A DNA stretch of 951 bases from NCBI RefSeq assembly GCF_003334385.1, contig NZ_QOWN01000141.1. One strand, written 5' to 3'. Of this stretch, positions 1 through 951 are shown in pieces (the stretch's first letter is position 1; each line of letters opens with the position of its first letter). The notes under the pieces are model-generated. The model was not told the origin of the DNA. It was given only the letters and a program-made list of their open reading frames with translations, and made no database searches. A program made the translations under genes and the position numbers. Source of the DNA: Escherichia coli. GTDB lineage: Bacteria > Pseudomonadota > Gammaproteobacteria > Enterobacterales > Enterobacteriaceae.

Positions 1-45
1 CCCCTGCAGCGGGTCATAATAGCGGTGGCGGTTGTAATACAGGCC
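1..45 (-). other. Start of the Rhs repeat-associated core terminal motif ([15 protein letters not shown]), truncated by the window edge
   Basis: Seen in sequence: codons 303-317. Established knowledge: in Rhs, TcC and teneurin-type YD proteins the YYxxRxRYYDPxxGR motif immediately precedes the conserved DPxGL core boundary, after which the variable C-terminal toxin begins. Confidence 0.8.
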
Positions 46-951
46 GGACTCCTCATCATACTGCTGCCCCGGCAGGCGGATAAGCTGCTGCAGCTGATGC
101 GGGTTCTCTTCATTCAGCAGGTTGCCCCATTCATCATATTCTGCGCACCACGCTGTTGCCCCTTCCGTGCTGATGAGCGCCAGCGGCAGGCCGCGATGGT
201 CGCAGTGGTACAGGTGGATTTTTCGCGCCGGCGTGTACACCGGGTCCATCTGGTTTTGCATCTGCTCCACGGTCAGGCCGCACGATGCCAGCCAGCGGCG
301 GCTTTCCTCACTCACCCGGTCAGCCAGGATTTCACTTTCCAGCCGGTCGAGCATCTGCACCAGCACCGGCGGGAACACCACACTGCCACCGTCTTCGCCG
401 CCGGACTGCTGAAGGGTATCCGCCAGGCTGCGGCGCTGCGTTTTCGCCAGCTCACCGGTGGCGGTTTCAACCCTGATGAGTGGCGTGAAGCTCCCCGGCT
501 GATAAATCGTCTGGATGCGGGTTCTGTCGTTCTGTATCGTGGTCAGGCGGTCGCCGTCCCAGCCGTACCAGGTCACTTGCGGTTTCCGTGACAGCGACAT
601 CCAGCCCGTCAGGTCCCGTTCACGCCGCCACACCCGTTTTGCCACCCTGCGGCCCAGCGGGTCGTAAAGATAGCGACTTTCGACCAGCGGCTCTTCATAT
701 TGTGTCCGCGTGTAGTGCACCAGCCGGTGCTGACTGTCGTAATGGTACCGGTGAGTCCGCTCATCATCCGTGCGGATAACCCCTTCCGGGATGAGGTCGG
801 TTTTCTCTGTCAGCCTGCCGTGACGGTCATACCGGTAAAGATAGTGCGCGTCACGGGCGATACGGTTATCCGGCCACATGCTGAGGGTGCTGTCCGGGTG
901 CAGCTCCGGGTCGGGCAGGCGGTTACCTGCCGGGTCTGTGGCATACGGGAT
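1..951 (-). CDS. rhs: Rhs-family protein (YD-repeat polymorphic toxin core), internal fragment; 5' and 3' ends both outside the window
   Basis: Seen in sequence: the reverse complement read in frame from position 951 gives 317 codons with no stop: [317 protein letters not shown]. It contains repeated YxYDxxGRL-type (YD) motifs and ends in the RYYDP motif typical of the Rhs repeat-associated core. Established knowledge: this motif series matches the enterobacterial Rhs core as I recall it. The paralog (rhsA, B, C, D type) cannot be resolved from 951 bp, so the symbol is given at family level only. The ORF track lists no minus-strand ORF, presumably because this frame has no stop inside the window. 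Confidence 0.93.
115..144 (-). other. YD-repeat motif (protein level): [10 protein letters not shown]
   Basis: Seen in sequence: codons 270-279; YDxxGxL pattern. Confidence 0.65.
187..216 (-). other. YD-repeat motif (protein level): [10 protein letters not shown]
   Basis: Seen in sequence: codons 246-255; Y-x-x-D-x-x-G-L spacing matches the YD repeat. Confidence 0.65.
241..420 (-). other. YD-free segment within the Rhs core (Gly/acidic stretch followed by a helix-prone stretch)
   Basis: Seen in sequence: codons 178-237, [60 protein letters not shown], contain no YD motif, unlike the flanking sequence. Inference: the composition (L, E, R, Q rich after a GG-E-D-GG stretch) suggests a helical insert interrupting the beta-rich repeat array. 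Confidence 0.5.
544..570 (-). other. YD-repeat-like motif (protein level): WYGWDGDRL
   Basis: Seen in sequence: codons 128-136; a degenerate YD repeat with W substituting for Y, in aromatic-x-aromatic-D-x-x-x-R-L form. Confidence 0.55.
652..672 (-). other. YD-repeat motif (protein level): YLYDPLG
   Basis: Seen in sequence: codons 94-100, followed by RRVAKRV; a YDPxG-type YD variant. Confidence 0.7.
721..747 (-). other. YD-repeat motif (protein level): YHYDSQHRL
   Basis: Seen in sequence: codons 69-77; YD core followed by a basic residue and L, the same pattern as the neighbouring repeats. Confidence 0.7.
811..843 (-). other. YD-repeat motif (protein level): [11 protein letters not shown]
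   Basis: Seen in sequence: codons 37-47 of the minus-strand frame; fits the Y-x-Y-D-x-x-G-R-L consensus of Rhs/YD repeats. Confidence 0.75.

Follow-up and report, generated by a model that had tools for sequence, protein, structure and literature searches.

Does the helix-prone segment that interrupts the YD-repeat array of an Escherichia coli Rhs core protein belong to all Rhs shells or to one lineage, and does it form a plug or a surface module of the cage? The question arises from a 951-nucleotide stretch of DNA, referred to here in its full length as the window, a first-pass annotation of which had raised both points. It bears on how Rhs cages, which are investigated both as containers for toxins and as delivery vehicles amenable to engineering, are modeled from solved relatives.

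Parent gene of the window

Only one frame of the window, frame 1 of the minus strand, is open throughout, and its 317 codons are free of stops. The window is 99.6–99.8% identical in nucleotide sequence to annotated rhsB, rhsC, and "RHS element core protein" genes (99.8% for rhsC). Of 5426 complete E. coli genomes, 3888 contain a match, at a median of five copies each. The RhsC protein of strain MB50, which has a length of 1397 residues, covers the entire window, and residue i of the window corresponds to RhsC residue i+898. MB50 RhsC matches the NCBIfam equivalog model NF041261 (RHS_core) over residues 1–1247 with a score of 2658 bits, the cut-off being 2000, and the window is a fragment of this gene. 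RhsC also matches TIGR01643 in nine stretches, as well as PF05593 and PF03527. The region encoded by the window can be aligned without gaps to RhsD, with 81% amino-acid identity, and groups with the E. coli rhsA–D core, the identity to rhsB and rhsC being 99.6–99.8%. Clade I in the scheme of Jackson et al. 2009 (PMC2935791) comprises rhs of the E. coli RhsA–E type, and, judged by sequence, the window belongs to this lineage. Two putative aspartyl autoprotease motifs of the form DPxGL, namely DPIGL (RhsC residues 1221–1225) and DPLGL (1243–1247), are located beyond the window.

The plus strand carries a 188-codon open reading frame opposite the rhs frame (nucleotides 25–591) and several shorter ones, according to a mechanical list of open reading frames; these antisense frames are probably a by-product of the GC-rich codons that the core uses. 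An RNA element was considered and rejected, as the sole Rfam match in the window is to a trypanosomatid snoRNA with an E-value of 0.22, far under the gathering score.

A predicted helical insert interrupts the YD shell

Residues 48–1247 of RhsC were modeled using AlphaFold2 from a shallow alignment of 43 homologues. The 1200-residue model has a mean pLDDT of 87.1 and a pTM of 0.78, and forms an almost purely beta cocoon. Foldseek comparisons gave TMt values of 0.87 for Tse5 (31% identity), 0.86 for P. protegens RhsA, and 0.88–0.89 for Advenella Rhs; the RhsC shell is predicted to be a closed beta-spiral cocoon that can be superposed on the solved Rhs cages. Strands formed by model residues 1008–1015 (PLIRVETA) and 1094–1101 (RKIHLYHC) flank five helices, which comprise model residues 1016–1020, 1027–1034, 1046–1060, 1066–1074, and 1079–1084, with no strand in the segment 1016–1093. 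These five helices provide 43 of the 68 helical residues of the whole model, as counted by hand from the DSSP list.

Because the helices are bracketed by the two strands, the true insert comprises window residues 165–242 and is wider than the segment flagged previously (Table 1). That segment, nucleotides 241–420 or residues 178–237, lies inside the insert, but it is about 13 residues short at the N-terminal side and 5 at the C-terminal side. The first-pass annotation had missed the first two helices, since the insert starts earlier, at residue 165 (nucleotide 459), and it ends at residue 242 (nucleotide 226). The four peptides that had been quoted, with no strand named, are all encoded on the minus strand where they had been placed: WYGWDGDRL (residues 128–136, nucleotides 544–570), a Gly/acidic peptide (181–195, 367–411), the Leu/Glu/Arg-rich peptide VLVQ...NQM (196–235, 247–366), and a downstream repeat peptide (246–255, 187–216). 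The loss of YD repeats following WYGWDGDRL is real, but one more beta-hairpin and the strand PLIRVETA intervene before the insert.

Table 1. Features of the window. Residue numbers (aa) refer to the translated window; all features are on the minus strand.
Feature	Nucleotides	Strand	Basis and remarks
Partial CDS of Rhs element core protein (E. coli clade I, rhsA/B/C type)	1..951	-	Open frame; rhsC identity; corresponds to RhsC residues 899-1215; codon 1 is nt 951-949
YD-shell beta-hairpins upstream of insert, aa 1-164	460..951	-	AF2 strands to model residues 1008-1015; aligns to Tse5 chain 863-983 and S. bongori Rhs
Last pre-insert strand, PLIRVETA, aa 157-164	460-483	-	AF2
Insert proper, predicted helical and YD-free, aa 165-242, 78 residues	226..459	-	PDB homologues break or gap there; AF2; corresponds to RhsC 1063-1140
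Helix 1, TGELA, aa 165-169 (aa 165-171 in isolated model)	445..459	-	DSSP on AF2
Helix 2, LADTLQQS, aa 176-183	403..426	-	AF2; L176 invariant, A177 and L180 conserved
Gly/acidic loop, aa 184-194	370..402	-	AF2, lowest pLDDT; gap fraction
Helix 3, aa 195-209	325..369	-	AF2; hydrophobic moment 0.46; L197, L201, L204, E205, E207, I/L208 conserved
Helix 4, EESRRWLAS, aa 215-223	283..309	-	AF2; follows conserved S214; W220 conserved, L221 invariant
Helix 5, VEQMQN, aa 228-233	253..270	-	AF2; follows conserved G225-L226
Return linker to shell, QMDPVYTPA, aa 234-242	226..252	-	AF2 coil; P237 mostly conserved
PF03527 'RHS' hairpin, first beta-hairpin after insert, aa 245-281	109..219	-	E = 1.4e-15, RhsC 1143-1179; AF2 strands, model residues 1094-1101 and 1107-1112
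Start of RHS repeat-associated core domain (C-terminal plug and autoprotease region), continues past window	1..138	-	TIGR03696, 83.6 bits, RhsC 1170-1247

The insert has a molecular weight of 8.6 kDa and a pI of 4.45. The pLDDT values of consecutive ten-residue blocks from model residue 1021 to 1090 are 80, 65, 78, 86, 87, 88, and 84; the minimum corresponds to the Gly/acidic loop, and helices 3–5 lie in the blocks from 1041 to 1090, which have values of 78–88. When modeled in isolation, the insert forms matching helices with a pLDDT of 66 and a pTM of 0.48. The higher confidence obtained in the context of the shell suggests that the insert depends on the shell for support and does not form a domain of its own, and the modest confidence of the isolated model indicates that it may be partly flexible.

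None of the YD- or RHS-repeat profiles in the Pfam and NCBIfam scans of RhsC matches the insert, and PF03527 begins two residues past it. The Pfam scan gave no match on RhsC residues 1063–1141, and the NCBIfam matches there are those of the whole-core model, the insert alone falling on positions 1075–1156 of the NF041261 profile. A Foldseek search of the PDB with the isolated insert model gave no significant fold match (best E-value 3.4), and sequence searches of the PDB provided no insert-specific match. The insert contains a single tyrosine among its 78 residues, as opposed to 19 among the 239 flanking residues (binomial P of about 0.01).

Together with the absence of strands from both the full and isolated models, the intact shell of homologues that have no such segment, and the absence of repeat-profile matches, this scarcity of tyrosine makes it extremely improbable that the segment continues the YD beta-spiral in degenerate form; nothing beyond the position of the segment within a repeat protein speaks for this reading. 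The structure prediction proposed in the first-pass annotation as a check thus returned helices and no degenerate YD strands, in agreement with its description of a helix-prone segment without repeats that breaks up the beta-spiral.

The first 23 residues of the translated window (nucleotides 883–951) form a second stretch free of YD repeats. It is mostly coil in the AlphaFold2 model, with a pLDDT of about 75–77, and directly follows the position of Tse5 segment 873–909, which was too flexible to model. This stretch may be another variable exterior loop.

Comparison with solved Rhs cages and position on the shell

The phmmer alignments of the window protein to Tse5 and S. bongori Rhs stop at query residue 164 and restart at residues 237–246. 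After deletion of the insert, the query aligns in one piece to S. bongori Rhs (query residues 2–144 to residues 893–1030), P. protegens RhsA (to residues 1117–1255), and V. parahaemolyticus RhsP. The length of the spacer at this site, counted by hand from the alignments as the number of residues between the "PL" of PGSFxPL and the "Y" of YHCDH (Y-x-C/T-D), is 10 in RhsP and S. bongori Rhs, 22 in Advenella Rhs, 43 in Tse5, 49 in Tse15, and 89 in the window. Since three solved Rhs proteins do not have the insert and three have shorter spacers, the insert is lineage-specific and its site is an indel hotspot. The cross-family alignment that had been suggested as a second check thereby settles whether the segment is conserved in all Rhs cores: it is variable.

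The Rhs proteins of S. bongori (PDB: 8qjb-d), P. protegens (RhsA, PDB: 7q97), and V. parahaemolyticus (RhsP, PDB: 8h8a/b) share with RhsC the YD cocoon and both strands that flank the insert. In these minimal shells, however, the insert is replaced by a tight turn, as in the S. bongori sequence ...PLARYEKGQLHYTITD (PLARYEKG-QLHYTITD), where the turn consists of the two residues KG. The closest solved relative is Tse5 (P. aeruginosa PA2684; PDB: 8cp6), which has the cocoon fold and the flanking motifs PGxFxPLLR ... FFHTDHLGTP in common with RhsC. Tse5-NT contains a PAAR-like domain and RhsC starts with MSGKPAARQGD, a possible further likeness. Tse5 also has extra residues at the insert site, the 43-residue spacer LRLEQACEPDPPELLQLRQAFAAEGQPLPAQCVPALGEARIAF (sequence from P0272). 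This spacer is about 46 residues shorter than that of RhsC, and contains at most one helix-prone stretch, which can be weakly aligned to helix 2; it has no counterpart of helices 3–5, and homology between this spacer and the insert of E. coli is not supported statistically. We found no discussion of the spacer segment in the Tse5 paper.

Tse15 of A. baumannii (PDB: 8uxt/8uy4) belongs to a different Rhs clade, characterized by an N-terminal helical "clade domain", and resembles RhsC in having an enlarged spacer at the insert site, formed by chain residues 1243–1281 between the aligned blocks. Unlike the RhsC insert, the Tse15 spacer is shorter, unrelated in sequence, and disordered instead of helical. 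Its residues 1256–1267 are the only cage residues without density, and were described by the authors of the structure as a solvent-exposed exterior loop.

Among the non-repeat modules that decorate YD shells are the beta-propeller of TcB, the FN-plug and NHL domains of teneurins, and the N-terminal plug or cork of Rhs proteins. Like the insert, these are modules without YD repeats on a conserved shell; however, they are larger, recognized domains at other positions and with assigned roles, whereas the insert is a small helical excursion that matches neither a Pfam family nor a known fold. None of the solved Rhs structures contains the helical module, and our search of the structural and comparative Rhs literature found no description of it. 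The "helical insertion" mentioned in PMC11067744 was rejected as such a description, because it concerns an ADP-ribosyltransferase toxin and not the shell.

We infer that the insert is located outside the cocoon near its C-terminal pole, with its conserved hydrophobic face packed against the shell wall. The insert has a volume of about 10,400 Å3, and the 150-residue RhsC toxin (16.6 kDa) one of about 20,100 Å3; the two together would almost fill a cavity of the size of that of Tse5, reported as roughly 32,000 Å3. The exposed loop of Tse15 lies within the homologous spacer, and the site tolerates spacers from 10 to 118 residues long, including a 5-residue indel, a 34-residue duplication, and variants of 99–109 residues. 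These three observations point to an exterior position, and the gain in pLDDT over the isolated insert model argues for packing against the shell.

The plug regions of Tse5 are residues 48–124 at the N-terminus and 1092–1168 at the C-terminus, and in the alignment the insert falls between chain indices 983 and 1016 of Tse5, corresponding to residues 1030–1063. The C-terminal plug, which starts at about window residue 271, and the TIGR03696 domain are thus both downstream of the insert, with one PF03527 hairpin in between; the insert is not part of a plug domain. Of the "plug or surface module" proposed in the first-pass annotation, the surface module is favored, also by the exterior position of the equivalent Tse15 loop, and the plug is not. 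Helices that reside in the lumen, where they would line the cavity, touch the toxin, or help to close the C-terminal end, are very unlikely. The proximity of the insert to the C-terminal plug and the occurrence of amphipathic helices inside Rhs cages, such as the anchor helix of P. protegens RhsA, would fit such an arrangement. The exterior loop of Tse15, the nearly full cavity, the length variants of up to 118 residues, the assignment of plug domains to other sequence positions, and the ability of Rhs proteins that have no insert to close their cages all speak against it.

Distribution, conservation and possible role of the insert

The insert with short flanks was used in a HMMER scan of 1.84 billion representatives of 50%-identity clusters, which provided 151 proteins with E-values of 0.001 or lower. 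Rhs fragments account for nearly all of these, and low-complexity repeats for the small remainder. Three low-complexity tandem-repeat proteins (P0249, P0251, and P0260) were rejected as occurrences of the module outside Rhs, as was a 509-residue NCBI protein (P0002) composed of scrambled, repeated Rhs pieces with four matched stretches, which looks like an artefact of assembly or open reading frame calling. When the 317-residue translation of the window was used in a word-indexed protein search, only near-identical E. coli fragments were retrieved, which gave no information on diversity.

A further scan covered one genome per species; as it was seeded with motifs typical of the clade, it charts this clade and should not be read as a survey of Rhs proteins at large. 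It identified the module among Enterobacteriaceae in Escherichia albertii, Citrobacter, Trabulsiella, Yokenella, Phytobacter, Buttiauxella, and others, in Yersiniaceae (Serratia silvae and Rahnella) and an Erwinia metagenome-assembled genome (MAG), and among Comamonadaceae in Paracidovorax, Acidovorax, Diaphorobacter, Delftia, Comamonas, and Variovorax. The matches outside Enterobacterales and Comamonadaceae are from two other MAGs. The homologous inserts of Enterobacteriaceae, Yersiniaceae, and Comamonadaceae are 77–90 residues long, and the spacers of the family fall into length classes of 89 and 84 residues. More divergent, helix-prone variants of 99–109 residues occupy the insert site in a few genes; among Rhs proteins in general, the spacer ranges from 10 to 118 residues. 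Full-length members of the family start with the PAAR-like motif MxGKPAARQGD.

Several side observations concern individual loci. In Trabulsiella odontotermitis strain 01 (L035:5202-5408), the insert contains an in-frame 102-nucleotide tandem duplication (2.0 copies, 98% identity), which repeats the 34-residue unit of helices 3–5, VDNLEAGLRRGELSEHNRQWLVQSGLTVEQLV, and extends the spacer to 118 residues; the duplication could be real or an artefact of the draft assembly. Rhs fragments with 60–96% identity to the query alignment are present on short contigs in Bacillota, Nanosynbacter, Collinsella, Sporosarcina, Lachnospiraceae, and Flavobacterium MAG records (L007, L008, L016, L032, L038, and L055), and a 97% identical one in a Listeria monocytogenes record (P0083); these are almost certainly due to contamination or mis-binning. 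At several loci outside E. coli, the open reading frame directly upstream appears VgrG-like by eye. Downstream orphan rhs fragments, which are displaced C-terminal tips, often start within or just after the insert (L010:7664-8443, L012:7898-8608, L047, L054, and L057), and the conserved block that directly follows the insert may often serve as a boundary of recombination. The rhsC and rhsA-type loci L001:7857-9377 and L002:8333-10014 have downstream partial "RHS repeat-associated core" pseudogenes, which are accompanied by the immunity-like genes ybfC, yibG, and Imm57 in a classic orphan toxin/immunity arrangement.

Conservation was calculated over 74 unique family sequences from Enterobacteriaceae to Comamonadaceae, which are 23–40% identical within the insert. 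L176 and L221 are invariant, and A177, L180, L197, L201, L204, E205, E207, I/L208, S214, W220, G225, L226, and E229 are strongly conserved. The conserved hydrophobic residues have the i/i+4/i+7 spacing that is expected of packed amphipathic helices. Residues 185–189 (nucleotides 385–399) are missing from about 60% of the family sequences, with gap fractions of 0.59–0.61. In the gap-free alignment of RhsC to K-12 RhsD, dN/dS is 0.29 for the insert and 0.08 and 0.09 for its flanks, and the insert is therefore under purifying yet relaxed selection. Its GC content of 0.62–0.66 matches that of the core, and a recent foreign origin was rejected on this basis.

The main rival explanation is a neutral expansion of a permissive exterior turn, in which the insert would be a loose linker that is prone to helix formation and serves no particular purpose. 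Such an expansion would account for the variation in spacer length, the tolerance of the Gly/acidic indel and of the in-frame duplication, and a dN/dS three times that of the flanks, and it fits the pLDDT of 66 of the isolated model, the lack of a fold match, and the disorder of the equivalent Tse15 loop. Selection on the insert is nevertheless still purifying, the two invariant leucines and A177, L204, E205, E207, S214, W220, G225, and L226 persist across 74 divergent sequences, and helices 3–5 are predicted with a pLDDT of 78–88 in context. We consider neutral expansion unlikely.

The reading that we favor, with a probability of roughly 0.7, is that the five-helix acidic insert is a hallmark of clade I, positioned on the cage exterior, where it would serve as a non-catalytic brace or docking surface. 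An excursion of 78 residues, modeled as five short helices, takes the place of the tight beta-turn of minimal Rhs shells, with a single hairpin separating it from the C-terminal plug and autoprotease. The insert characterizes the E. coli-type core with its N-terminal PAAR-like motif (Jackson clade I), and is also present in relatives from other Enterobacterales and from Comamonadaceae. The analysis establishes that the insert exists, that it is helical and additional to the shell of other Rhs proteins, and that purifying selection acts on it less strongly than on the shell, whereas its location and role are inferred. Our best guess for its function is that of a structural brace or a clade-specific docking surface, neither toxin chamber nor plug.

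A more specific proposal, which we put forward tentatively and regard as rather unlikely, is that the external module is a clade-specific functional handle. It could dock the cognate VgrG or PAAR-like N-terminus, or an adaptor, or act as a latch beside the C-terminal plug. A latch, if real, would influence autoprocessing or the release of the toxin, and docking or latching could explain why the clade I core is conserved together with the module from E. coli to Comamonadaceae.

The insert is a lineage-specific and probably external elaboration of a loop in a long-known protein, ordinary in kind and not a new system, and in this respect it is unsurprising; the helical module itself is a newly described feature of the textbook E. 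coli Rhs core. Because no solved structure contains the module, the solved cages, Tse5 included, provide incomplete templates for the classic Rhs proteins of E. coli, and knowledge of the module is mildly useful when Rhs cages are modeled or engineered. In nature, the turn that precedes the final hairpin of the shell accommodates 10–118 residues; this permissive insertion site is of practical use for tagging and engineering.
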